A stretch of 43,782 bases of DNA from Bacteroidia bacterium. Its GTDB lineage: Bacteria; Bacteroidota; Bacteroidia; AKYH767-A; OLB10. The notes beneath the pieces are model-generated. The model had not been told where the DNA came from, did not search any database, and saw only the letters and a program-made list of their open reading frames with translations. The position numbers were made by a program, and so were the translations under genes. How positions within the stretch are numbered: the stretch's first letter is position 1; the number at the start of each line of letters is the position of its first letter. Location: the NCBI GenBank assembly GCA_035275625.1, contig DATEMK010000066.1, positions 1-43,782 on the forward strand. The letters run 5' to 3'. Below, piece by piece: positions 6,334 to 43,782 of the stretch.

Positions 6334-7668
6334 TTAAGCAGGTCTCCACATTTCTATTTCCTGCGAGAACATATAGTTGACATCGGATTTCATACCGCAT
6401 TTCATTCTCACAACCTGATCTAATGTGGTTTTGCGCATATCAACGGTTTCTAAAGAGGAACCGTCACCGAGAAGATCAACAGCGAGGAACATATTGGAGA
6501 CTTTTGCAATGACAATCACATTCGGTTTCCAGTAAGGCATGGGTGTTAAAACATTTCCTAAGAAGTCGAGCACTTTATCACCGACAAACGCTCCTACTAC
6601 ATTAGTTCCGGCAGCCTGTGAAAGTTTATAAGCACGTTCCACATGCAGCGGGATATAAATTTTAAGATCAGTTTCAGCCCTGAGCGCATCCGGAATAGTG
6701 TTATAGATGGTGGAGAAAACCGAAATAACGTTGAAACGATTAATGCTGATCAGTTTGGCACTTCCGAATGTTGGCGTTCCTGTAGCTGCTGAGGTATCAA
6801 CTCCGATGGAAAGAGTAGTTCCTGAAAGAATTCCGGTAATCAGGTATGAATTACCGTTGAGCTGAGTGCTCATGTTACCTGTGCCGGCAACACCAAGAAC
6901 AGTTACATAATCCCCGACCTCTAAATTGGTTGTGCTTACTACGGTTACTACCGCTTCAGTTGCTTTTGTAATGTCACTTACTGCGAACGTTGCGTTAGCG
7001 CCAGGGTTTAATTTTCTAACATTACTATCGGCAAGCATTAAAGGAAGCAAACCGGTATAGGAAGAAGAAAACGTAAACAATGCATTTGCTGATTTACCAA
7101 GGAGGTAAAGCTGCTCGTTTTGAATAGCGATTTTCTTCAATGCACGCTGAACTAAGAAATCTGACAGCTCCACGGTTCCGTCATAGTCCTGCATTTCACC
7201 AGGCTTCAGTTGCTGAGCTTCCCATGAAGTGACAAGCGTACTGTAATTGTATTGCTTATGAATTTCATAAGCTACAGGATCGAGATAACGCTCCGGAATG
7301 GTAATAGATGAAGTCTGAGGTGTGAAGACTGCTGATGGTGTCTGGAATGCGAAATCATCATCCAGTGAACGCATCAGTTTTCTTTTCTTCACATTTGGAA
7401 TGACTGTTATAAGTCCACGTTCCACGAGACCGGGAGATAACAGGGCTGTTGCCTGGTATCCTGCCAATAATTCACCGGCATACGTGTTAGGCGTAAATGT
7501 GAATGTGGTTTCAAATGCTAATCCCGCTGGCATTCTGATGAATGACAAGGCGAAGAAAATCAGCATGAGAATGAAAGGGTTTAACCCGATTGCATTTGCA
7601 ATTAATCCACCTCCGATTATTGCAAGCAATAGAGCGGTTATCCGGTGGACGATTAGTTTTGATTTCAT
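6334..7668 (-). CDS. Major capsid protein (HK97 fold)
   Basis: 444 aa. HK97-family landmarks include ELSDFLVQRALKKIAIQNEQLYLLGKS and ...YTGLLPLM..., plus a C-terminal ...VRMKCGMKSDVNYMF. It follows a protease/scaffold gene. Confidence 0.7.
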   Translation of the reverse strand: MKSKLIVHRITALLLAIIGGGLIANAIGLNPFILMLIFFALSFIRMPAGLAFETTFTFTPNTYAGELLAGYQATALLSPGLVERGLITVIPNVKKRKLMRSLDDDFAFQTPSAVFTPQTSSITIPERYLDPVAYEIHKQYNYSTLVTSWEAQQLKPGEMQDYDGTVELSDFLVQRALKKIAIQNEQLYLLGKSANALFTFSSSYTGLLPLMLADSNVRKLNPGANATFAVSDITKATEAVVTVVSTTNLEVGDYVTVLGVAGTGNMSTQLNGNSYLITGILSGTTLSIGVDTSAATGTPTFGSAKLISINRFNVISVFSTIYNTIPDALRAETDLKIYIPLHVERAYKLSQAAGTNVVGAFVGDKVLDFLGNVLTPMPYWKPNVIVIAKVSNMFLAVDLLGDGSSLETVDMRKTTLDQVVRMKCGMKSDVNYMFSQEIEMWRPA

Positions 7669-7729
7669 TTTTTTTTTGGTTATTTAATGATTGGTTTTAT
7701 GATGGTTTTGAAATAGTGGCGTGGGTATG

Positions 7730-8977
7730 TTACCGTGCAGTTGCAGCAGCTCTTTCAGCTATAGTTTTGGGTTTTTCTTCATCCTCATCCTTGTCTTTTT
7801 TCTTATCCGGAGGAACAAAAGATTTTTTCTTTTTCGGCTCGTAATCCGTGGAGATTGATTTTTTAATTTTCTCCAATTCTTTTTTCACTTCTTCCAAATC
7901 GGATTTCTGTTCACCAAGCTCCTTCTCGAGCTTTTTGTTTTTGATTGTGAGGTCAGCAAATTCCTTTGCAATTTTTTCCTCGTCTTCAGTTTCATCCTCC
8001 GAATCTTCTTCTTTCGGTTTAACTGAAGTGACTTTTCCACCTGCAACGCTCACGACATTGCTGCCCTGGGTGTAATTTCCATCAGATGCAGGTTTGCCTT
8101 CTGAGTTCTGAGCTTCATCGCCTTCCGCAGGAGCTTCGTTGTCGGTTATAATTGAAATTTCTGAACCATCGTCACCGGTTGCAGAGATGCTTTTTACATC
8201 GCCATCAATGAGGGCATTTACTTTTGCTTTGAACTTTTCGTACAAAGACTTTTTCTTGTCTGCCATTGTTTTTTGATTTTTATATGTGTGGAATTTGAGT
8301 AAGAACTCTTTTAAAATTTCAGGGTGTTCGCTGATGATCTCGAAGATTTCGGGGTTCTCTTCTAAAAACTCAGTCGCTTTTGCTGCATAATTACCTTCTA
8401 TATCCTTGAAAAGATTTTCGGTTGCAGCAGGAGAATCAACTAAATCGGAAGCAACAAAAGATTTGAGGCGCAATGCATCAACTTCCTTCTCTCCTCCATC
8501 CGTGTTGATCTTAATTTTCTGTGATTCATCTGGAAAAAAAGCGATTGAATTTCCGAACATGTCGTTATTTTTCTCCGCCATGTCGAGGACGTATGTATAT
8601 AAATCACCGCCCGGAGATTTTTTTGCTGTTTTGTCGAGGTGCAGATCAGCGATAGTGTGGTACTTCTGCCCTTCAGGATCACCCATTGACTTTTCAGCCT
8701 TCAATTCATAGCGGAAGTTTTTGAAACGACCGATATAGGTACCCAGACCTTCTTTGCACATGGTCGGATGCCCGAACCGTGATTTAACACCATTGGTTTG
8801 AGCGTTTCCATGATCAGCAAGTGATTTCAGGAACACATCGTCCATGTAATCACCTGTTTTATCCCAACCATAGTTGGCGATCACCACATCTTTAATAATG
8901 GCATTCTCACGATCAATTTTCGTGGTCATATCTTTAAAGAAGATGGGTGTTGATTTAAAAAACCTGTGTTTTGGCAT
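7730..8977 (-). CDS. Prohead protease fused to a coiled-coil, acidic scaffolding-like C-terminus
   Basis: HK97-type protease-like His...Ser pattern (VKSRFGHPTM ... MFGNSIAF). The C-terminal half is Glu/Lys-rich coiled coil. The ATG at 8977 is preferred over the GTG at 8992 because it lies 26 nt from the late-promoter-like motif. Confidence 0.55.
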   Translation of the reverse strand: MPKHRFFKSTPIFFKDMTTKIDRENAIIKDVVIANYGWDKTGDYMDDVFLKSLADHGNAQTNGVKSRFGHPTMCKEGLGTYIGRFKNFRYELKAEKSMGDPEGQKYHTIADLHLDKTAKKSPGGDLYTYVLDMAEKNNDMFGNSIAFFPDESQKIKINTDGGEKEVDALRLKSFVASDLVDSPAATENLFKDIEGNYAAKATEFLEENPEIFEIISEHPEILKEFLLKFHTYKNQKTMADKKKSLYEKFKAKVNALIDGDVKSISATGDDGSEISIITDNEAPAEGDEAQNSEGKPASDGNYTQGSNVVSVAGGKVTSVKPKEEDSEDETEDEEKIAKEFADLTIKNKKLEKELGEQKSDLEEVKKELEKIKKSISTDYEPKKKKSFVPPDKKKDKDEDEEKPKTIAERAAATAR

Positions 8978-27868: not shown

Positions 27869-28035
27869 AATTTCTTTAAATATTCAACTAATACAATTAA
27901 GTTGTAAGGATCAATTAGTTCATAGAAGTCAAGTCCGTTGTGCACCATTTTCACAATTTCGATTTGCTTTTTGCTATGTACTTTGTAATGCACGGTGAAA
28001 GGAATTCCACAGACACGGCAATCATGCTTTTTCAT
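27865..28035 (-). CDS. Small protein (56 aa) absent from the ORF track
   Basis: MKKHDCRVCGIPFTVHYKVHSKKQIEIVKMVHNGLDFYELIDPYNLIVLVEYLKKL. The start overlaps the E1-like gene's end by 14 nt, and the stop overlaps the next ATG (ATGA). Confidence 0.4.
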   Translation of the reverse strand: MKKHDCRVCGIPFTVHYKVHSKKQIEIVKMVHNGLDFYELIDPYNLIVLVEYLKKL

Positions 28036-28858
28036 TTTTTGCTTTAATCATTATAGGATTTGTACTTAGATTGTCGAGGTTTAAAAACAAACCATGATAC
28101 TCCAGTTTCAAATTCCTGAACATCTTCCAGATCAGTTGTGCTCCATATTGCGCCAGGATGGAATTAATAAACAAATCCTGCTTTCCCAAAGCTTCAGCAA
28201 GTGAACAACTGGGCATATCCGGCTTATCAAATTTTTTCATATCCGGAAACAAATCCAGTATAGTAGGTAATTCTTTAACTGTACCCTTAGATCCTTTAGG
28301 CTGGTTCACTTTACCGAAGGTTCCTAACACCACCTGGCCTGATGTCTGGCTGTTGCCAAGGTCCAGCCAATAAACCGGTATGTTAAAGGGTGATCGGTCG
28401 TTATTGGTTAAATATTTAATTTCTTCGATCCATTCACGTGACTGTACGTTGTCCACACATGATACCATCATATTAGCAAAGCACCTGTCTTTTAAAGCCT
28501 GTTGATCCCATTTCATAGGAAATGACTGCCAGTTGAATCCATAAAACCTGTTGATACGCTCAATAAGAATTTTTGCTTTGTACTGATCTAAGTCAGCTTT
28601 TGAAAACAATTGCCGTCCCAAGTTTGCCTCGCTTACTTTATCAGGATCCCACGCCTGTACAACTATACCCGGGTGGCCCAATGCAATGAGCGAAACATTG
28701 ATTCTGGCCAGCGCCTGCAGCATCTGGCTGCCGGATCCACCACACCCAATCACTTTGACTGTTATGGGATGTTCAGGGGATAGAAAATACTGTTCGGTAA
28801 AATGAACTTTCTTTTCTTCTTTTTTGGAAACTGATTTTTTACTTACAGATTTTCGCAT
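28022..28858 (-). CDS. ThiF/MoeB/E1-like adenylyltransferase (PRTRC ThiF-family component)
   Basis: Rossmann motif VIGCGGSGSQMLQALA, then DPDKVSEANLGRQLF and VSCVDNVQSR, all hallmarks of the E1-like fold. It sits in PRTRC synteny. Confidence 0.8.
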   Translation of the reverse strand: MRKSVSKKSVSKKEEKKVHFTEQYFLSPEHPITVKVIGCGGSGSQMLQALARINVSLIALGHPGIVVQAWDPDKVSEANLGRQLFSKADLDQYKAKILIERINRFYGFNWQSFPMKWDQQALKDRCFANMMVSCVDNVQSREWIEEIKYLTNNDRSPFNIPVYWLDLGNSQTSGQVVLGTFGKVNQPKGSKGTVKELPTILDLFPDMKKFDKPDMPSCSLAEALGKQDLFINSILAQYGAQLIWKMFRNLKLEYHGLFLNLDNLSTNPIMIKAKNEKA

Positions 28859-29556
28859 ATTGCTCTGAGATTGGTAGTGCTCTGTTTAAGTTTTTTTAAA
28901 TTGAATTTACCCCTGCGTTTTTTCCTCCACCACTTCTGCATGTCCGTTTTACTATAGGCGCCTGTTACATTGTCGGTAAATTCCGAATTCCAGAATGCCT
29001 TTTCCCAGGCTGCAATAAGTTCATTAATATCCCCGCTTGTTTTTGGCACCTTCACATTACCAAGACACACCTTATGATCGGAATACACATTGAAGAACGG
29101 AGCATGATGCAGCCTGGTTAAAATGGATGGCCTGCGATTCTTATTCAATGCAGTTACAACCAGTGTATTGTTTTTGACGATGAAGACAAGCGGAGGAGTC
29201 CATGCAGTGATGGACGGCTTATTTTTAATCAGCAGAGTCTGGCGCTTTGTCGTCTGCCACCAGGCGATTACATTTCGTCCCGGGCGCTGATCAATAACCA
29301 GCAGGTTGGTGGGAACTATATCCGAAATAGAATAATACGTTTGCTTATCGTTTTTTGCAACCACATCCATCAGCAGCTGCAACGATTGTTTAGTAACCGG
29401 TTTTCCTGATCCGATAAATGCCTTGGAACCATCCTGCATGATGTCCGACACCTCCACGTAATATTTGGTTTCGGTCCGGTCTTTTTCAGCAGGATTGGTT
29501 GAATAAACAATCAAAGCCTGCTTGGGTGAATAAAATGAAAGGTTCGGTTGTTTCAT
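28843..29556 (-). CDS. PRTRC protein-B-like, possible E2/UBC-like component
   Basis: 237 aa, directly upstream of and overlapping the E1-like gene. The motif LHHAPFFNVYSDHKVCLGN is reminiscent of the E2 HPN...CL active-site region. Confidence 0.55.
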   Translation of the reverse strand: MKQPNLSFYSPKQALIVYSTNPAEKDRTETKYYVEVSDIMQDGSKAFIGSGKPVTKQSLQLLMDVVAKNDKQTYYSISDIVPTNLLVIDQRPGRNVIAWWQTTKRQTLLIKNKPSITAWTPPLVFIVKNNTLVVTALNKNRRPSILTRLHHAPFFNVYSDHKVCLGNVKVPKTSGDINELIAAWEKAFWNSEFTDNVTGAYSKTDMQKWWRKKRRGKFNLKKLKQSTTNLRAICENL

Positions 29557-30836
29557 AGAATATCTAATAATGGTATTGGTTTGAACAGTGCCTTGGAAAG
29601 TTTGTTAGTGTCTTCAAAAACACTCCGGTATTTTTTCTCCATCATCCGGCCAGCTTTCATAAATTTAATCAGTACCTCCGGGAAGCAATTTTTTGTATCC
29701 TCAAAATCTGATGGCTTCTCAATAACACAATCAAGAAAGAAAGGAACACCTCCCGCATTGCTGGTCTGTGCCTCACACATACCGGTGAGTTCATAATGAA
29801 ATGCATCATCGGTTCTCCAAAGAAATTTTACTGCCTCGTCAGGAGTCATGGGTAATTCATCGTATTGCTCCTCCTGTCCTTCATATTCTGAGGGAAGAGA
29901 AATGAACTTATGCATGTTCTGTCCCGACACCATTAGTTGCTTTCCAAGTTCCAGCCAGCTATAAATGTCTTTCAGGATTTGTGTATTGGGCTTGTATTTT
30001 CCAAAATAGCTGTCATACTCCCGCAGCCAAACCCTTTTCGATGAACCCGCTCTGATGAGCCGGTTGTAAAATTTGGTGGCTTCTCCTTTATTTCCGAATT
30101 CCTGATGTGCTTTTTCCAGGGATTCAATTTCCTTTTTCGTTTCATCACGGGGATCATTGCCATGATTTGTTTTATAGTGAACAAGGTTTTCTTCGATATT
30201 TTGATAGATGTAATTTTCACTATCTTCTTGCCACAAACCAACACCCCCACTATTGTTTAAATACCTGATCAGGTAAAAGCATAAATCAAAAAGGGAACCC
30301 TTATTTACTTTTTCTAATTGTGAAATCCAATACACCGGCATCACTGGACAGTCCACATCAAAGTAAACTGGCTGTTTCAGCCTCCAGCAATAACGTCCAT
30401 CTTTCAGAACAATGCCCAGCTCCTCGTGGTGAATCAGCTTGGATGTTTTAAGAAGAAATATGTGGAACACTTCTGAAACGGATGATTTATCAGTCCAGCG
30501 TGTGTTATCCTTGAATCCTTTGATTCCTGATGTAAGCGGTAATAAATCTTCCAGCGCCTTCAGGAGTTTTGATTCATCCTCCAAGAGGCAGTGACCTTTT
30601 GGCTTAGTCATCAAATCCACATGCACCCCATTCACGTATCTCAAAGGAATTTTTATGGAAGGTGGCATATGATTTCGGAGGGAGGAGGCACCCGTTCCCG
30701 GCTGTGCATCGAGAGGTCTAACACGCTCCGATTGATAGCGCTTTCGGAATGTAGGATGCTTCCGATTACGTTGTGAAGCTCCTGTAGATCCTCTTGCGGA
30801 TGATTGGGCTTTGGTGGTTTTCTTTTCTTTTTGCAT
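29553..30836 (-). CDS. Uncharacterised 427-aa cassette protein with a very basic N-terminus
   Basis: Lies between the Ubl and E2-like genes. The start at Met30 (30836) avoids a 68-nt overlap with the Ubl gene. The track ORF extends to 30923. Confidence 0.55.
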   Translation of the reverse strand: MQKEKKTTKAQSSARGSTGASQRNRKHPTFRKRYQSERVRPLDAQPGTGASSLRNHMPPSIKIPLRYVNGVHVDLMTKPKGHCLLEDESKLLKALEDLLPLTSGIKGFKDNTRWTDKSSVSEVFHIFLLKTSKLIHHEELGIVLKDGRYCWRLKQPVYFDVDCPVMPVYWISQLEKVNKGSLFDLCFYLIRYLNNSGGVGLWQEDSENYIYQNIEENLVHYKTNHGNDPRDETKKEIESLEKAHQEFGNKGEATKFYNRLIRAGSSKRVWLREYDSYFGKYKPNTQILKDIYSWLELGKQLMVSGQNMHKFISLPSEYEGQEEQYDELPMTPDEAVKFLWRTDDAFHYELTGMCEAQTSNAGGVPFFLDCVIEKPSDFEDTKNCFPEVLIKFMKAGRMMEKKYRSVFEDTNKLSKALFKPIPLLDIL

Positions 30837-31090: not shown

Positions 31091-32095
31091 TTAATCAGTT
31101 AATTCTTGTAACGCCTTTATCCATTTTTCAGCTGAGGCAAGCTGTTTGATCACCTCCGCATTGTCCGGAAATTTCTCTTTTGCTTTTTTGAAAGTTTCCA
31201 GTGATGCCTCATATTGACGATCCGTTCGCTGCTTCAATCCAGTTTCCATTAAATCTTTCAACTCTTTTTCCCTGGCATCTGCCTGTTGTTTGTTCAATGC
31301 CTGCTTTGCTTTCTCCAAATCATGTGAAGCTTTTGTATTTCCATCAGGCGCTTTGGTAACTGCAATTTCATATGCACGAATCGCCTCCTCGAAATTGCCG
31401 GCATCCATAGCACGCTTACCCAGATCCATTGTGTCAGTAAACTCTTTCAGCTTTTCTTTTGCTGCCTCAACTTCTTTTGATTTGTCCTGCTTGGATTCAG
31501 TTTCCTCAGGCTCCGTTTCAACCTTCACCATAGTAAGGTGTTTGTTAACCAGCTTTGTCAATTCAAACATGGAAACCGTTTTCTTTCCTCCAAAAATCTT
31601 TTTGAGGTTCTCATCAGAATGTATAGTTCGTTTTTCCTTCTTGTCCTGTAATCCCTTTTCTTTAATGTAAGCCCACATCTTTTTTGTCACTTCCGTTCTT
31701 GCTAACGGTTCTTTGCCAACAATCGGTTGAAGCGCTTCCCCGATTTCCATCTTCATCATAAAGGCGGGTTCTCTTTCAGATGATTTGACTTTTTTCTTAG
31801 AGTGTGAGCTTTTCTTTTTGGAAGATGCTTTCGAACCCTTACCATCTGTTTCAGTGTCGGATTCCGGTGCATCCTGCACAGTAACATTGAACTTTTGTTC
31901 GGTTGGCTCGGTGTTCACTTTTAAATGATTAATGATTCCATTGTCCACCTCTTCCGGATTGCCGGTCATGGTGATCAGTTTGTTGTCTTTATTGATGAGC
32001 AATGTCAGCTTATCACCCACTCGTGTAGTGGTAATTTTAACGACCTGTTTGTCGTTGAGTAGCGCAAATAGCGCTCTGAAGAAGATTTGTTCCAT
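31091..32095 (-). CDS. PRTRC protein-E-like N-terminus, SWIB/MDM2 domain, and TPR-like C-terminus
   Basis: N-terminus ...KITTTRVGDKLTLLINKDNKLITMTGNPEEVD. Residues 109-188, PAFMMKMEIGEALQPIVGKEPLARTEVTKKMWAYIKEKGLQDKKEKRTIHSDENLKKIFGGKKTVSMFELTKLVNKHL, are a textbook SWIB domain. Confidence 0.75.
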   Translation of the reverse strand: MEQIFFRALFALLNDKQVVKITTTRVGDKLTLLINKDNKLITMTGNPEEVDNGIINHLKVNTEPTEQKFNVTVQDAPESDTETDGKGSKASSKKKSSHSKKKVKSSEREPAFMMKMEIGEALQPIVGKEPLARTEVTKKMWAYIKEKGLQDKKEKRTIHSDENLKKIFGGKKTVSMFELTKLVNKHLTMVKVETEPEETESKQDKSKEVEAAKEKLKEFTDTMDLGKRAMDAGNFEEAIRAYEIAVTKAPDGNTKASHDLEKAKQALNKQQADAREKELKDLMETGLKQRTDRQYEASLETFKKAKEKFPDNAEVIKQLASAEKWIKALQELTD

Positions 32096-32106
32096 AATTT
32101 TAAAAT

Positions 32107-33261
32107 TTAATTTTTAGTAAATGTTACGTTTGTTAATTGTCTTCCGTTATTCCATATTGAGTAAAGCCCTTTTTCATTAACTCTAATCGTCATAGTTTCT
32201 ATCTTGCCGAAAAAATTAATATTACCTCCAAGATCCACCAGCCAGCAACTTTCTTTAGAAGGATGTATGCGCATTCCTCTTCCGAAAATCTGATAGTATA
32301 GTGCAAGTGACATCGTGGAGCGGGCCAGTAAAACACATTCCAGTTCAGGATAATCAAAGCCTGTGGTCAGCACACCCACGTTGATCACACAGCGAATCCT
32401 TCCGCTTTTAAATTGTGCCAGCACACGGTCACGCATTGCTTTATCTGTTTCCCCGGTAATTACGACCGCTCCGGGAATACCGCTTGCAACTTCTTTGGCT
32501 TCTGCAATCAGCGAACAGAACACTAACAGGTTTTTTCTTTTTGCAAGTAACCGGTTAGCATAGCCGATGGTGATTTGCGGCATGTTGATTTTACGGTAAT
32601 GCTCTTTGAGGCTGGCATCGGTAAAATCTGTTCCGGTAGAATTTACCTGCAGCATCTTTCTGTCAATTACATTGAAGCTGAAATATTCAAGCCTGGCAAG
32701 GTGGCCGGAGTCAAACAACACCCTGTTCTGAACATAGTAGATGCATTTGTTAAATATCCGCGGATTGGTCCTGTTGATAAATTTCAACATGGCGCCTTCA
32801 AGGGAGGATGAAAGCCGGTAAGGTGTTGCAGTAAGTCCCAATACTTTGGCTCCCGGAATAGCTTTTACAAAATCATGGTACATTCCCCCTTTGCCATTCA
32901 CCAGGTGACATTCATCAATAATTATATTTTCGCAATCCCGGAACAAGTGATGTTTGGTGGTAACGCTTCCTATTGTTGAGAAGGTTATTTTATCTAAATA
33001 TTTTTTCCCTGCCGATGCCGAGTAAACTCCTGCACGATAACCATAGCTGGTAAACTTCTGCACGTTCTGTGCAAGTATTTCTTTAGAAGGTTGAAACACT
33101 ACAGTCTTGCCACGGAGCTCCTTCGCTATATTAGCTATCACCACCGATTTCCCGGAGCCGGTTGGAAGTATTTCAAAGGCGTTATAGTTTCCACTGCCGT
33201 TGAAATAATTCACCGCATGGTGTATGGCGTCTGCCTGATATGGTCGTGGGGTAAACTGCAT
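32107..33261 (-). CDS. Superfamily 2 DEAD/DEAH-box helicase
   Basis: Motif I LPTGSGKS, motif II IIIDECH, motif III LTATP, motif VI QIFGRGMR. Confidence 0.85.
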   Translation of the reverse strand: MQFTPRPYQADAIHHAVNYFNGSGNYNAFEILPTGSGKSVVIANIAKELRGKTVVFQPSKEILAQNVQKFTSYGYRAGVYSASAGKKYLDKITFSTIGSVTTKHHLFRDCENIIIDECHLVNGKGGMYHDFVKAIPGAKVLGLTATPYRLSSSLEGAMLKFINRTNPRIFNKCIYYVQNRVLFDSGHLARLEYFSFNVIDRKMLQVNSTGTDFTDASLKEHYRKINMPQITIGYANRLLAKRKNLLVFCSLIAEAKEVASGIPGAVVITGETDKAMRDRVLAQFKSGRIRCVINVGVLTTGFDYPELECVLLARSTMSLALYYQIFGRGMRIHPSKESCWLVDLGGNINFFGKIETMTIRVNEKGLYSIWNNGRQLTNVTFTKN

Positions 33262-39900: not shown

Positions 39901-40524
39901 ATGGATCAAAACGATAAAGTATTCATGGAAGAAATCGAGTATTTGAAATCGTTACGGATTATAAAAAGAGACTCTGAAATTGTGAAAAGCACAGGCTACA
40001 GCAAGGGACTTGTATCTAATTATATCAATGGTAAGATTCCAATCAGCGAAGCTTTCAAAGAAAAATTCTACGAGGTTTACGGGGAACACTTGCCTAAGAA
40101 CAAAGTTTCAGATGTTGAAACTAAGTCGCAAGGCGGAAATATCATCCACGTTCCGTTAATTGCTTATGGTGGTTTTTTGCAGGGTTACGCAAACAAAGTT
40201 TTTATGGATTCTCTTCAAAGATTTTCGCTCCCTGGTGTTAATGGAGAGCATTACGCTTTTGAAGTTGATGGGATGAGCATGTTTGATTTGGCTGCGCCTG
40301 GCGACACTGCAATAGCCAGACTGGAAGAAAAAGTTGACTGGATGATTAAAGGAAAACCGTATGTATTGCAAACCATTGATGGCCTACTGATAAAACTTTA
40401 TGATGGAATTAAAGGGGAGAAATGGATATTCAAATCCTACAACCCGGAGTACAAACCAATCGAAATTCCATTGAGGAACCTGAAAAGAGTTTACTTTGTC
40501 ACTCGAATTTTAAAAAAAGTATAA
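39901..40524 (+). CDS. cI-like repressor (HTH plus S24 LexA-like autopeptidase)
   Basis: N-terminal HTH (STGYSKGLVSNYINGK). C-terminus FEVDGMSMFDLAAPGDTAIA...LLIKLYD carries the S24 Ser/Lys dyad pattern. Confidence 0.8.
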   Translation: MDQNDKVFMEEIEYLKSLRIIKRDSEIVKSTGYSKGLVSNYINGKIPISEAFKEKFYEVYGEHLPKNKVSDVETKSQGGNIIHVPLIAYGGFLQGYANKVFMDSLQRFSLPGVNGEHYAFEVDGMSMFDLAAPGDTAIARLEEKVDWMIKGKPYVLQTIDGLLIKLYDGIKGEKWIFKSYNPEYKPIEIPLRNLKRVYFVTRILKKV

Positions 40525-40525
40525 C

Positions 40526-41047
40526 ATGAAAAAATTATTAACAATCCTGTTTCTGACCACATGGTTACAAATCAATGCACAAACAACCCTTCCTACTGAT
40601 TCTGCAACCGGCAGGATTACTTTCACTGAAGTTGTAAAAGTTGATTCGACAGCTGCAAGTGAACTTTATTCCAGAGCAAAGATTTGGTTTGGTGAAACTT
40701 TCAACTCCGCACAATCTGTTATTCAAACTGATGATGCTAATTCAAAAACAATTGTTGGCAAAGGCGGAGCCGTTTATTATATGAATGGCCTGACTGGTGA
40801 AAAATTTAATGCCGGCACAATTCATTATATGATTAAGGTGGAGGCGAAAGACAACCGCTATAAATATACAATTACTGACTTCGATGTTCAAACAAAGTAT
40901 GCAAGTTCTACTGTGGAGGATTACAACAATACAAAAAAGCAGAAGCAGAAATTGTATGACCAGGTGCAAACTATTGGTGATGGACTTTCAACCAGCTTGA
41001 AAAATTCGTTATCAAAAACATCTTCATCGGCAAAATCAAATTGGTAA
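40526..41047 (+). CDS. Secreted DUF4468-like protein (lysogeny-expressed cargo)
   Basis: Signal peptide MKKLLTILFLTTWLQINAQ. GRITFTEVVKVD...ELYSRAKIWFGETF...YKYTITDF matches the DUF4468 pattern. Confidence 0.6.
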   Translation: MKKLLTILFLTTWLQINAQTTLPTDSATGRITFTEVVKVDSTAASELYSRAKIWFGETFNSAQSVIQTDDANSKTIVGKGGAVYYMNGLTGEKFNAGTIHYMIKVEAKDNRYKYTITDFDVQTKYASSTVEDYNNTKKQKQKLYDQVQTIGDGLSTSLKNSLSKTSSSAKSNW

Positions 41048-41398
41048 ATGAATCAGGATCATCAGGAGGAAATAACCAGGCGAATGGTTGAAGCTGCAAA
41101 GCATGTGATCAGCGTCAACAAAAAAATAACGGACATGAAAGCATTCGCGGAAACAATTGGTTCCGGACCGGTGCAGGCATCCCGGTGGATCAGTGGCAAG
41201 GGAAGCGTAACACTTAATGATGTGGTGAATGCAAGTACAATTTTCGGGATCTCTTTGGAGTGGTTATGCCTGGGAATAGGCGAGATGTATCTGAGCCGGT
41301 TGCAGCAAATGGAAAACAGAATTGCAGTGCTCGAAAAGTCCGTAAAAAAGTCAGTAAGGATTAATAAAAATTCAGCCGTTCGAATCAAAACAGCTTAA
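41048..41398 (+). CDS. XRE/CI-type HTH protein
   Basis: AFAETIGSGPVQASRWISGKGSVTLNDVVNASTIFGISLEWLCLGIGEM. The start directly abuts the upstream stop. Confidence 0.6.
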   Translation: MNQDHQEEITRRMVEAAKHVISVNKKITDMKAFAETIGSGPVQASRWISGKGSVTLNDVVNASTIFGISLEWLCLGIGEMYLSRLQQMENRIAVLEKSVKKSVRINKNSAVRIKTA

Positions 41399-41445
41399 AA
41401 AGAAGTATTAAAAATCAATCAATTATAAAATGAAAAACGCCCTGA

Positions 41446-41466
41446 TCGAATCTCGCCCAGGGCACT
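41446..41466 (+). other. Candidate attR core: a degenerate copy of a tRNA 3' end (T-loop to discriminator)
   Basis: TCGAATCTCGCCCAGGGCACT versus the tRNA-Leu 3' end TCGAGTCTCCTCTCGGGCACT (41603..41623). The flanks are also similar (CTAAA...GGTTTAARGTTTAAAGTT). Confidence 0.5.
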
Positions 41467-41537
41467 AAAAATGGTTTAAGGTTTAAAGTTTGAAGTTTAA
41501 GGTTGGCTGATGCGATGATGAACCTTAAACTTCGATT

Positions 41538-41621
41538 GCCCGGGTGGCGAAATTGGCAGACGCGCAGGTCTCAGAAGCCTGTGGGGTAACACCTTTAGGA
41601 GTTCGAGTCTCCTCTCGGGCA
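41538..41621 (+). tRNA. tRNA-Leu (anticodon CAG)
   Basis: Folded by hand. Acceptor GCCCGGG/CTCGGGC (one G:U pair); anticodon stem CAGGT/GCCTG with loop CTCAGAA; long variable arm; T-arm AGGAG-TTCGAGT-CTCCT; discriminator A. No encoded CCA. Confidence 0.9.
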
Positions 41622-41632
41622 CTAAATAAAAT

Positions 41633-41685
41633 AGGTTTAAAGTTTAAAGTTCTTTCTATTACCCTTAACTTTAAACTTTAAACCT
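41633..41685 (+). terminator. 19-bp perfect inverted repeat (hairpin) between the tRNA and aroC
   Basis: AGGTTTAAAGTTTAAAGTT (41633-51) pairs with AACTTTAAACTTTAAACCT (41667-85), with a 15-nt loop. It is AT-rich and built from GTTTAAR heptamers. Confidence 0.45.
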
Positions 41686-41697
41686 TAAACCTCATAA

Positions 41698-42777
41698 ATG
41701 CCCGGCAACACTTTTGGTCAACGCTTCCGCATTACCACTTTTGGCGAGTCGCATGGCGAAATGATCGGAGTTATTATTGACGGATGTCCTGCCGGATTGG
41801 AAATTGATTTTGATTTTGTCCAAAAAGAATTGGATCGCAGAAAACCGGGGCAATCATCTATTACTACTCAACGAAAAGAAAGTGATACGGCAAAATTTGT
41901 ATCCGGAATTTTTAATGGAAAAACAACAGGCGCTCCCATTGCAGCCATTATTCCGAATGAAGATGCCCGTGAAAAAGATTATGAACATCTGAAAAATACT
42001 TTTCGCCCGTCTCATGCAGACTACGTTTATGAGATGAAATACGGCATCCGGGATTATCGCGGAGGAGGGCGTTCTTCCGCACGCGAAACTGCCGCTAGAG
42101 TTGTTGCAGGAGCGATTGCAAAAGTTCTTTTGAAAAAATATGGAATAACAATTACTGCTTATGTTTCAAAAGCGGGAGAAATCGTTTTGCAAAAAAATTA
42201 TACAGAATTGAATTTGGAGGATGCAGAAAAAAATATAGTCCGCTGCCCGGATGAAACAACTGCTCAAAAAATGATTGAACTTATTGAGAAAACAAGAATT
42301 GAAGGTGATTCAATCGGGGGAATAATTTCATGCGTTATAAAAAATTCTCCTGCGGGATTGGGTGAACCTGTATTTGACAAGCTGCATGCTGATTTGGGAA
42401 AAGCAATGCTGAGCATTAATGCTGTTCAGGGGTTTGAATACGGGAGTGGTTTTGACGGTGCAGAAAAAAAGGGATCCCTGAATAATGATGAGTTTTTAAA
42501 TAAAGACGGAAAAATAATCACAAAAACAAATTTCTCCGGAGGCATCCAGGGAGGAATCAGTAATGGAATGGATATCTATTTCAACGTTGCTTTCAAACCG
42601 GTTGCAACAATAATAAAAGCACAGAAAAGTGTAAATAAACAGGGAGAAGAAATAACTCTTGAAGCAAAAGGCCGCCATGATCCCTGTGTGCTGCCGCGTG
42701 CTGTCCCGATTGTTGAAGCAATGGCTGCAATTGTTTTAGCAGATCATTTATTAAGGAATAGAAATTCAAAAGTCTGA
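41698..42777 (+). CDS. aroC: Chorismate synthase
   Basis: [20 protein letters not shown]..., RPSHADY..., [11 protein letters not shown]..., GRHDPCV: all canonical AroC motifs. Confidence 0.95.
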
Positions 42778-42822
42778 CAAAACATTAATGACTAATTTTG
42801 CTTTTTACATTTTTGAAATGTC

Positions 42823-43782
42823 ATGTCAGCAGACTTAAAACTTACTCCATTACCCGGTTGGTTCCCATCAGCAAAACTGCCTTTACTCATTTCCGGCCCG
42901 TGTGGCGCTGAAACTGAAAAGCAGGTTATGGAAACTGCAATGGGTATTGCAGCATTAAATAAAGTACATGTATTTCGTGCCGGCATCTGGAAACCGCGAA
43001 CACGTCCTGATTCATTTGAAGGCGCGGGAGAAGAGGGGTTGAAATGGTTAAAAAGCGCAAAAGAAGAAACCGGGTTAAAAACAACTGTTGAAGTTGCAAA
43101 AGCGGAACATGTTGAACTTGCACTAAAATATGATGTGGATATTTTATGGGTTGGTGCGCGCACAACTGTCAATCCGTTTTATGTACAGGAAATCGCTGAT
43201 GCTCTTAAGGGAGTTGACATCCCGGTAATGGTTAAAAATCCTTTACATCCTGATTTGCAATTATGGATTGGTGCATTGGAGCGGGTGAATCGGGCCGGCA
43301 TTGATAAATTGATTGCCATTCACAGGGGATTTTTCTCATCATCAAATTCTACCTACCGGAATGCTCCTCAATGGCAAATAGCAATCGAGCTGATGCATTT
43401 GATTCCTGATTTGCCTGTTATTTGTGATCCGAGTCACATTGCCGGAAACCGTGACCTGATTTTGCAATTGGCTCAGCAAGCTTTAGATCTTAAAATGTGC
43501 GGACTCATGATTGAATCACACATTGATCCTGATAATGCACTCAGCGATGCCAATCAACAGCTGACACCCGCTGCATTAAATGAATTGCTGGAAACACTTG
43601 TTGTCCGCAAAGAAAAATCCGATAACATTGAATTTCAAAATACCCTTGAGCTGCTGAGAAAAAAAATTGATAAAATAGATCATCACCTGGTTGAAACAAT
43701 TGCTTCGCGGATGAAAATTGTTAACAAAATTGGTGAGTATAAAAGTGATCATAATGTTACTATTCTGCAATTGGAGCGCTGG
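42823..43782 (+). CDS. Bifunctional 3-deoxy-7-phosphoheptulonate (DAHP) synthase / chorismate mutase type II, 3'-truncated by the window edge
   Basis: The frame is open from the ATG at 42823 to the window end (320 codons), so it is missing from the ORF track for lack of a stop. LISGPCGAE..., FRAGIWKPRTRP, ICDPSH (type I-beta DAHPS), then ...IDKIDHHLVETIASRMKIVNKIGEYK (AroQ chorismate mutase). Confidence 0.85.
   Translation, partial: MSADLKLTPLPGWFPSAKLPLLISGPCGAETEKQVMETAMGIAALNKVHVFRAGIWKPRTRPDSFEGAGEEGLKWLKSAKEETGLKTTVEVAKAEHVELALKYDVDILWVGARTTVNPFYVQEIADALKGVDIPVMVKNPLHPDLQLWIGALERVNRAGIDKLIAIHRGFFSSSNSTYRNAPQWQIAIELMHLIPDLPVICDPSHIAGNRDLILQLAQQALDLKMCGLMIESHIDPDNALSDANQQLTPAALNELLETLVVRKEKSDNIEFQNTLELLRKKIDKIDHHLVETIASRMKIVNKIGEYKSDHNVTILQLERW

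Follow-up and report, generated by a model that had tools for sequence, protein, structure and literature searches.

Why should a gene cassette for ubiquitin-like protein conjugation in a prophage include a protein with a SWIB/MDM2 domain at its center, and where was that domain acquired? The question is raised by contig DATEMK010000066.1 of assembly GCA_035275625.1, from a Bacteroidia bacterium (AKYH767-A; OLB10). Throughout, "the window" refers to the complete contig of 43,782 nucleotides, one of 643 in a fragmented metagenome-assembled genome (MAG). The gene in question encodes a 334-aa protein resembling PRTRC protein E, and matches of its neighbors to Pfam and NCBIfam models place it within a cassette for a ubiquitin-like protein (Ubl) and its E2- and E1-like partners, as the first-pass annotation of this DNA had reported. 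PRTRC cassettes are widespread on plasmids, integrative and conjugative elements (ICEs) and phages, and we know of no role for any of their components. We find that residues 109–188 form a true SWIB/MDM2 domain, that the domain was most likely captured from the bacterial order to which the host belongs, and that it is maintained by strong purifying selection. On balance, we favor the view that it acts as a tether to DNA, to the nucleoid or to a host partner protein.

A SWIB/MDM2 domain in a PRTRC protein E-like gene

The segment at 31532–31771 is correctly read on the minus strand, since its plus-strand translation is full of stops. In a Pfam scan, residues 116–187 matched positions 3–74 of the 74-position SWIB profile (PF02201) with E=1.4e-26 and 92.5 bits, against a gathering cut-off of 25 bits, and among solved structures the SWIB part of yeast UAF30 was the best match by sequence (E=1.1e-13). 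An AlphaFold model of the domain alone, computed from 21 sequences, has a mean pLDDT of 90.1. Foldseek superimposed it on Arabidopsis SWIB (1v31), BAF60a SWIB (1uhr) and MDM2 with TM scores of 0.82, 0.80 and 0.83, respectively, and the best 50 of its 125 matches at E<=1e-3 were all SWIB, BAF60 or MDM2/MDMX proteins. In a model of the full-length protein, built from 5 sequences, residues 113–190 have pLDDT values of 73–81, residues 205–333 form helical hairpins with values of 80–92, residues 59–112 fall below 50 and are predicted to be disordered, and values are again low for residues 191–204. A Foldseek search with this model returned 1v31 first, followed by TPR proteins and MDM2. The first-pass annotation had assigned residues 109–188 to the SWIB/MDM2 family and had named a profile scan and a structure prediction as the means of deciding the matter; both give the same answer, and the assignment is confirmed by sequence and by fold, with TM scores of about 0.8 and no sign of a different fold.

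The remaining parts of the protein (Table 1) are arranged in the order originally described, an E-like N-terminus, a Lys/Ser-rich linker, SWIB and a TPR-like C-terminus, and this order is borne out by profile matches, composition and the structural model. The linker carries a net charge of +6 and is 30% lysine. TPR profiles, also suggested as a check, match the C-terminus: TPR_14 lies above its cut-off (25.6 bits versus 23.5), TPR_2 is marginal (E=6.8e-6, 26.3 bits versus 27), and TPR_16 also matches.

Several lines of sequence evidence indicate that the gene belongs, as a divergent member, to the PRTRC protein E family. When profiles were compared in hhalign, one made from the five closest relatives aligned with one of canonical Bacteroidota PRTRC_E proteins with 90.7% probability (E=1.2e-6). 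Searching 1.84 billion representative proteins with a profile of the N-domain found 30 proteins, and a 30-protein family set (A4) was assembled from 26 N-domain profile hits, the window protein and three close relatives. Within this set TIGR03741 (PRTRC_E) was matched by 18/30 proteins, PF19556 by 12/30 and TPR_2 by 14/30. It is this combination of profile alignment, matches within the family set and conserved cassette order that supports membership. PHROGs contains no family for the E-like protein.

Members of the family share a plan that consists of a small N-terminal domain, a disordered, Lys-rich linker resembling histone H1, and a TPR-like C-terminus. The six canonical Bacteroidota E proteins that we examined by eye have an N-domain, a charged linker and a helical hairpin in matching order. 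A basic H1-like stretch follows the N-domain at approximately residues 85–130, with a net charge of at least +8 in a 30-aa window in 32/53 family members; these linkers often contain AKKAAPKK-type repeats, and a long K/P/A tail is present in one E protein from a Bacteroidota chromosome. Several family members (P0022–P0071) come from contigs of 40–48 kb, which suggests a group of similar-sized phages that carry the cassette.

Origin of the SWIB insert

Among 5.8 billion protein clusters, four close relatives of the full-length protein were found. One of them, P0002, is 73% identical, has the same architecture including SWIB, and is encoded on an independent NCBI MAG contig (L014). The other three (P0003, P0004 and P0005) are 38–65% identical over the whole alignment and belong to the same cassette, but have no SWIB domain. 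An alignment of the five proteins (A1) reveals a clean indel within the Lys-rich linker, with SWIB present in the window protein and P0002 only.

The host has a SWIB gene of its own, located on another contig (C72; L001:1390–1728). Its 112-aa product, with a pI of 10.7 and a net charge of +25, consists of a Lys/Ala-rich tail and a SWIB domain, the latter running up to the stop codon, and is 66% identical to the phage segment. Besides the host itself, a stand-alone Lys-tail plus SWIB gene is present in 43/60 relatives from the host family and order, in matches that span query residues ~87–189, and thus both tail and domain. For this lineage, the earlier description of SWIB domains as rare in bacteria is not supported. 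Across the phylum the distribution is patchy: in addition to the host, 6/200 sampled genomes match, 5 of them above the Pfam cut-off. Stand-alone proteins of this kind, ~110–150 aa long with a Lys/Ala-rich tail, are conserved across the host family and a sister family. In the host the gene lies beside dnaJ, and this neighborhood is not conserved within ~1.5 kb on either side at 10 loci in other Bacteroidota genomes, so neighboring genes give no hint of function.

With the SWIB insert alone as query, bacterial matches at E<=1e-10 numbered at least 786 protein clusters. The best 120 of the 786 are short proteins of 84–149 aa with up to 73% identity to the insert, and MAGs of Bacteroidia, Deltaproteobacteria, Myxococcales, Gemmatimonadaceae and Bdellovibrionales are named among the matches listed. 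Identity is 43–45% with plant proteins and 50% with a chlamydial copy on a Simkania plasmid. In a maximum-likelihood tree of 138 SWIB domains (85 columns, quick search), both phage domains are joined in a single clade with an SH-aLRT of 99 and a long stem. This clade lies inside a 47-sequence clade (SH-aLRT 94) that also holds all ten sequences from the host family and order together with proteins of named Bacteroidia MAGs; sequences from Deltaproteobacteria, Myxococcales, Gemmatimonadaceae, Bdellovibrionales and plants fall outside it.

We conclude that the insert is most likely of bacterial origin, derived from the host order through one capture in an ancestor of the two phages. The bacterial relatives, the copy in the host and the nesting in the tree all argue for phage capture of a host gene and not for acquisition of a eukaryotic chromatin module. 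The label "eukaryote-type" given by the first-pass annotation is therefore not supported: the nearest relatives of the domain are short, stand-alone bacterial SWIB proteins with 60–73% identity, and the insert shares 63–69% identity with short bacterial proteins in which SWIB is joined to a Lys-rich tail.

Selection on the insert and rarity of the fusion

The SWIB insert is under strong purifying selection. Between the window protein and P0002, dN/dS is 0.076 in the SWIB segment, 0.079 in the N-domain and, higher than in SWIB, 0.17 in the TPR part; these ratios are approximate, because dS (~1.7 for SWIB) is near saturation. In an alignment of 21 bacterial SWIB sequences, 25/25 invariant columns are kept by the phage copies.

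The fusion itself is unusual, as the survey of other E proteins proposed in the original annotation makes clear. SWIB was detected in 2/30 proteins of set A4 by Pfam scan, in 2/36 proteins from a profile search whose output includes Pfam domains computed beforehand, and in 0/6 of the canonical Bacteroidota E proteins examined by eye. Overall, 2 of ~55 E-family proteins surveyed carry it, both from phages that have diverged from each other. Searching 50,697 deposited phage genomes with the whole protein (tblastn) gave no match, the SWIB part included. In a plasmid collection, all SWIB genes found stood alone and none was fused to E, and scans of IMG/VR and JGI metagenomes with the five-member E alignment recovered no relatives. 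A candidate second fusion, a 329-aa open frame with SWIB in Bacteroidota genome G139, proved to be an ordinary stand-alone Lys-tail plus SWIB gene whose upstream frame is open. In a literature search we found no publication linking SWIB to PRTRC or ParB; an apparent report of "SWIB" in a gut-virome preprint was traced to "SwiBio" in sample names.

The locus encoding P0002 has features of its own. As called, its E-like open reading frame begins with 74 additional residues, which align with an extension in P0004, an extra DUF6166 gene separates the E-like and Ubl genes, and an RVT_1 reverse transcriptase lies ~2.4 kb upstream (L014, 4689–5600 and 9235–9546). In a Phocaeicola prophage, the variable region of a diversity-generating retroelement is reported to correspond to PRTRC protein B (preprint 10.64898/2026.10.01.756045).

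The cassette and its prophage setting

Table 1. Coordinates of the E-like gene, its parts, and associated features. Positions refer to the window unless a viral contig is named.
Feature	Position	Strand	Basis or remark
Whole gene, 334-aa PRTRC-E-like protein with SWIB insert	31091..32095	-	ORF list, domain matches; stop codon 31091-31093
N-terminal globular domain, apparently of divergent PRTRC protein E type, residues 1-78	31862..32095	-	TIGR03741, hhalign
Lys/Ser-rich basic linker, residues 79-108, predicted disordered	31772..31861	-	Composition, pLDDT
SWIB/MDM2 domain, residues 109-188, in-frame insert	31532..31771	-	Pfam, AlphaFold, Foldseek, alignment
Acidic spacer after SWIB, residues 189-215	31451..31531	-	Net charge -3, pI 4.7
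C-terminal TPR-like helical repeat domain, residues 216-334	31094..31450	-	TPR HMMs, model, Foldseek
DEAD/ResIII (RadD-like) helicase, immediately upstream of the E-like gene	32107..33261	-	Pfam, NCBIfam
Ubl (PRTRC_C / Prok_Ub), 73 aa	30856..31077	-	PF14454 E=3.4e-25; TIGR03738 75.9 bits, above cut-off
Cassette protein, ~420-430 aa, no family match	29553..30836	-	Conserved between Ubl and E2-like genes
E2-like (Prok-E2_D / PRTRC_B)	28843..29556	-	PF14460 E=1.4e-29; TIGR03737 120.8 bits, just below 131.45
E1-like adenylyltransferase (PRTRC ThiF family)	28022..28858	-	TIGR03736 249 bits versus cut-off 144.75; PF00899
S24-peptidase (CI/LexA-like) repressor	39901-40524	+	Right border of prophage
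ParB-SWIB fusion genes, IMG/VR viral contigs	L079:4420-6372, L083:4384-6273, L084:4294-6258		Pfam

The order E-like protein, Ubl, ~420-aa protein, E2-like protein and ThiF is kept in four independent contigs (L014, L015, L017 and L018). In L015, L017 and L018 the interval from Ubl to E2-like is occupied by a gene of 375–425 aa, which follows a 68-aa gene in L018; in L014 it is split. In the window, the ~420-aa protein has no Pfam, NCBIfam or PHROG match, and it matches neither PRTRC D nor PRTRC F models with the threshold relaxed to E<=10. Its longest open reading frame reaches 30923 and would overlap the Ubl gene, for which reason the ATG at 30836 is probably the true start. The helicase upstream of the E-like gene is also present in L014 and L015. 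In L017, the phage contig encoding P0005, whose tail is rich in K/P/A, the gene directly upstream of E (6916–7995) encodes a DNA polymerase III beta sliding clamp and not a helicase, which is another link between the position of E and the replication machinery.

A complete PRTRC cassette (TIGR03734–03742) comprises a ParB-related protein, A (a JAB peptidase), B, C, D, E, F and ThiF. The full set is not present here: ThiF and C score above their cut-offs and B just below, while A/JAB and recognizable D and F are absent. ParB-like genes are found ~5 kb from the cassette, beside the terminase. No Prok-JAB (PRTRC_A) peptidase was detected in the whole host genome, and the Ubl already ends in glycine (...VGTKG); for these reasons the cassette looks like a conjugation set without a deconjugase.

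The phage genes of the window, all on the minus strand, encode a tape-measure protein, terminase, ParB-like proteins, an AAA_24 (Sak4-type) ATPase, a PD-(D/E)XK nuclease, a helicase, a Lin1244_N-domain protein and an AAA ATPase. The right border (39901–43782) contains the repressor, a DUF4468 protein, an HTH_3 protein and tRNA-Leu(CAG) at 41538–41622, the likely attachment region, beyond which lie a host chorismate synthase and a DAHP synthase/chorismate mutase. The host is an uncultured Bacteroidota bacterium, and the identity of its chorismate synthase to those from MAGs labelled Bacteroidota, Bacteroidia or Chlorobiota does not exceed 69%. An integrase was not seen at the right end, and on the left the prophage is truncated where the contig ends. 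Since the phage genes abut the repressor, the tRNA gene and host genes on one contig, we interpret the element as an integrated temperate prophage. The E-like gene and its cassette belong to its early (replication/recombination) operon, which is under repressor control.

Other SWIB fusions and precedents for DNA association

Residues 72–188 of the window protein find their best NCBIfam matches in the C-termini of topoisomerase-SWIB fusions (TopA-SWIB, NF004966; topoisomerase III-SWIB, NF011313). For the stretch 31532–31880, which encodes linker and SWIB, the top match is NF011313, "DNA topoisomerase III", at positions 875–988 of 988; fusions of topoisomerase III with SWIB therefore exist in bacteria besides the chlamydial TopA-SWIB. 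A SWIB profile scan of IMG/VR yielded 16 viral contigs, some of them with stand-alone Lys-tail plus SWIB genes. Three contigs encode proteins of ~630–655 aa in which ParB_N and HTH_ParB domains are followed by a Lys-rich tail and a Pfam-confirmed SWIB domain. In these ParB-SWIB proteins the Lys-tail plus SWIB module has been recruited independently, by a mobile-element protein that clamps DNA. Homologues of PRTRC Ubl, E2 and ThiF were not found around the 16 viral SWIB loci, and for the three ParB-SWIB loci this negative covers up to 6 kb on each side, less at contig ends.

Experimental precedents for an association of such proteins with DNA come from other lineages. The stand-alone SWIB protein of Waddlia, Wcw_0377, binds heparin and gives a genome-wide ChIP-seq signal (PMC6426960). 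Plastid SWIB-4, with an H1 motif beside its SWIB domain, is described in a review as binding DNA, compacting nucleoids and complementing hns in E. coli (Melonek et al. 2012, reviewed in PMC4154389). For chlamydial TopA-SWIB, overexpression of an allele that lacks SWIB makes chlamydiae grow more slowly (PMC12445093).

Discussion

We propose that a host-derived SWIB domain was captured into a phage PRTRC-E protein and acts as a tether to DNA, to the nucleoid or to a partner protein, and we consider this account, taken as a whole, the probable one. In the common ancestor of the two phages, a copy of the host-lineage Lys-rich tail and SWIB was most likely inserted in frame into the basic linker of E, and Lys-coding sequence of low complexity, shared by both genes, is a plausible site of recombination. 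Because the insert landed in the basic linker, it extends a segment that already resembled a DNA-binding tail. By analogy with the cellular source protein, linker and SWIB would work together as a module that anchors the E scaffold, either on DNA or the nucleoid or on the host SWIB protein's partner. The scaffold, once tethered, would bring along the Ubl-E1-E2 machinery, or a ligand of the TPR domain, to the site where the phage helicase and replication proteins act. The first-pass annotation had suggested that the cassette is directed to nucleoid-associated targets; given the precedents, a link of the E protein to DNA or the nucleoid can reasonably be inferred.

Several considerations weigh against this proposal. 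Eukaryotic SWIB domains are mainly protein-binding modules, and the DNA binding of the SWIB precedents may be owed to the basic tail and not to the SWIB fold. We know of no experimental work on any PRTRC component or on any Bacteroidota SWIB protein. The full-length model is of moderate confidence overall, and with a pTM of 0.34 it is uninformative about the arrangement of the domains. The annotation "PRTRC-E-like" stands as far as homology is concerned, through profiles, intermediate sequences and position in the cassette, and falls short at the curated threshold: TIGR03741 matched residues 5–97 alone with E=3.3e-4 and 20.6 bits, below its cut-off of 37.95, and Pfam and NCBIfam scans of the full-length protein gave no match to a PRTRC E model, including PF19556, at E<=0.01. 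As most E-family proteins do without SWIB, the domain is an accessory and not a core part of the cassette. The near-saturated dS limits what can be made of the selection estimates, the support of 94 for the enclosing clade comes from a quick search, and finer placement within the tree is not settled by an alignment of only 85 columns.

Other explanations for the fusion differ in what the SWIB domain is thought to contribute, or whether it contributes anything. The SWIB module could be a mimic or decoy that competes for the DNA sites or the partner of the cellular SWIB protein during host takeover, largely independently of Ubl, with the E protein merely a convenient carrier expressed early. The insert is of host-type descent and keeps all invariant positions, its stem of 0.35 substitutions per site, compared with ~0.05 for terminal branches in the host family, is what would be expected of a re-tuned captured gene, the gene lies in a repressor-controlled early operon, and other viral contigs encode Lys-tail plus SWIB proteins on their own. 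A stand-alone gene would suffice for this purpose, yet the domain is embedded in frame in mid-protein, and purifying selection acts on the two flanking domains as well; we therefore judge competition with the host protein to be rather unlikely, but the most serious of the competing views. It has less in its favor to suppose that E is a substrate of Ubl and not an adaptor, with lysines of the linker and SWIB as acceptors whose conjugation would switch DNA binding or stability. Nothing in the family is more constant than the Lys-rich disordered segment that directly follows the N-domain, the E gene always adjoins the Ubl gene, and the Ubl has a free glycine end with no JAB peptidase to undo conjugation. 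This support is purely circumstantial, however; DNA binding accounts equally well for the Lys-rich tails, and retention of a folded, conserved SWIB domain (dN/dS 0.08), rather than of extra lysines, is left unexplained. We regard this role as improbable.

Acquisition of a chromatin module from a eukaryote or from chlamydiae might be suspected because the Pfam family is best known from eukaryotes and the best solved structures are those of the yeast UAF30, Arabidopsis, BAF60 and MDM2 domains. With bacterial matches reaching 73% identity as opposed to 43–45% for plants and 50% for Simkania, a copy in the host, and the phage domains nested in the host-order clade, such an origin seems highly implausible. 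We attach next to no weight to the idea that the gene is a chimera of a host SWIB gene and a phage gene created in assembling a MAG of 643 contigs, or a decaying neutral insertion. At 73% identity the same architecture recurs on a contig of an independent NCBI MAG, the open frame is uninterrupted and conserved (dN/dS 0.076), and a mis-join of the host gene is contradicted by the fact that the insert is only 63–66% identical to it.

A more specific form of the tether proposal would make E a substrate-selecting (E3-like) adaptor of a phage-run Ubl conjugation system acting on the bacterial nucleoid. SWIB would dock on DNA or on the host SWIB partner, the TPR domain would hold the charged E2-Ubl, and chromosome-associated host proteins or the SWIB partner would be tagged in early infection or upon prophage induction. 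We consider such a function unlikely; if true, it would be a bacterial-virus analogue of chromatin ubiquitylation.

The fusion offers a "Rosetta-stone" clue to the function of PRTRC cassettes. Taken together, the E-SWIB fusion, the H1-like linker of the family and the ParB-SWIB fusions suggest by analogy that the E component, and hence the cassette, may operate on DNA. What is novel is the domain architecture within the known PRTRC E family; SWIB as such is nothing unusual in the host lineage, which corrects the view of it as a eukaryotic import. Small proteins with a Lys-rich tail and SWIB emerge as a conserved trait, so far unstudied, of an entire Bacteroidota family and order. The host-lineage protein looks like a candidate nucleoid protein, and phages have borrowed its module repeatedly.

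Among known systems, PRTRC protein E (TIGR03741/PF19556) is closest to the window protein, which shares with it a homologous N-domain, a position directly upstream of Ubl and the overall plan, and differs in having an 80-residue SWIB domain in the linker and in scoring below the curated E cut-offs. The setting differs as well: in contrast to the cassettes of conjugative elements, plasmids and some phages, the present one is without JAB (PRTRC_A) and recognizable D or F, and the gene resides in a prophage early operon, not on a plasmid or ICE. The stand-alone Lys-tail plus SWIB proteins, such as the 112-aa host protein, Waddlia Wcw_0377 and Chlamydia CT460, resemble the insert in identity over the domain (60–73%), in the boundaries PxAFMKxM...KHL and in the preceding Lys-rich stretch. 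These cellular proteins stop right after the domain (...KHLS, stop codon), whereas the phage domain is internal, placed after the PRTRC-E domain and before an acidic spacer and TPR repeats. Plastid SWIB-4 is likewise basic with an H1-like motif beside SWIB and provides a functional precedent, but it is eukaryotic, organelle-targeted and stand-alone, with no link to Ubl conjugation in the account given by the review, and the plant SWIB domains compared here are ~45% identical. Topoisomerase-SWIB and ParB-SWIB proteins likewise join a Lys-rich tail and SWIB to a DNA-handling protein. Those fusions place the module at the C-terminus of a DNA-acting enzyme or clamp, while in the phage protein it is internal and its carrier is the scaffold-like component of a Ubl cassette.

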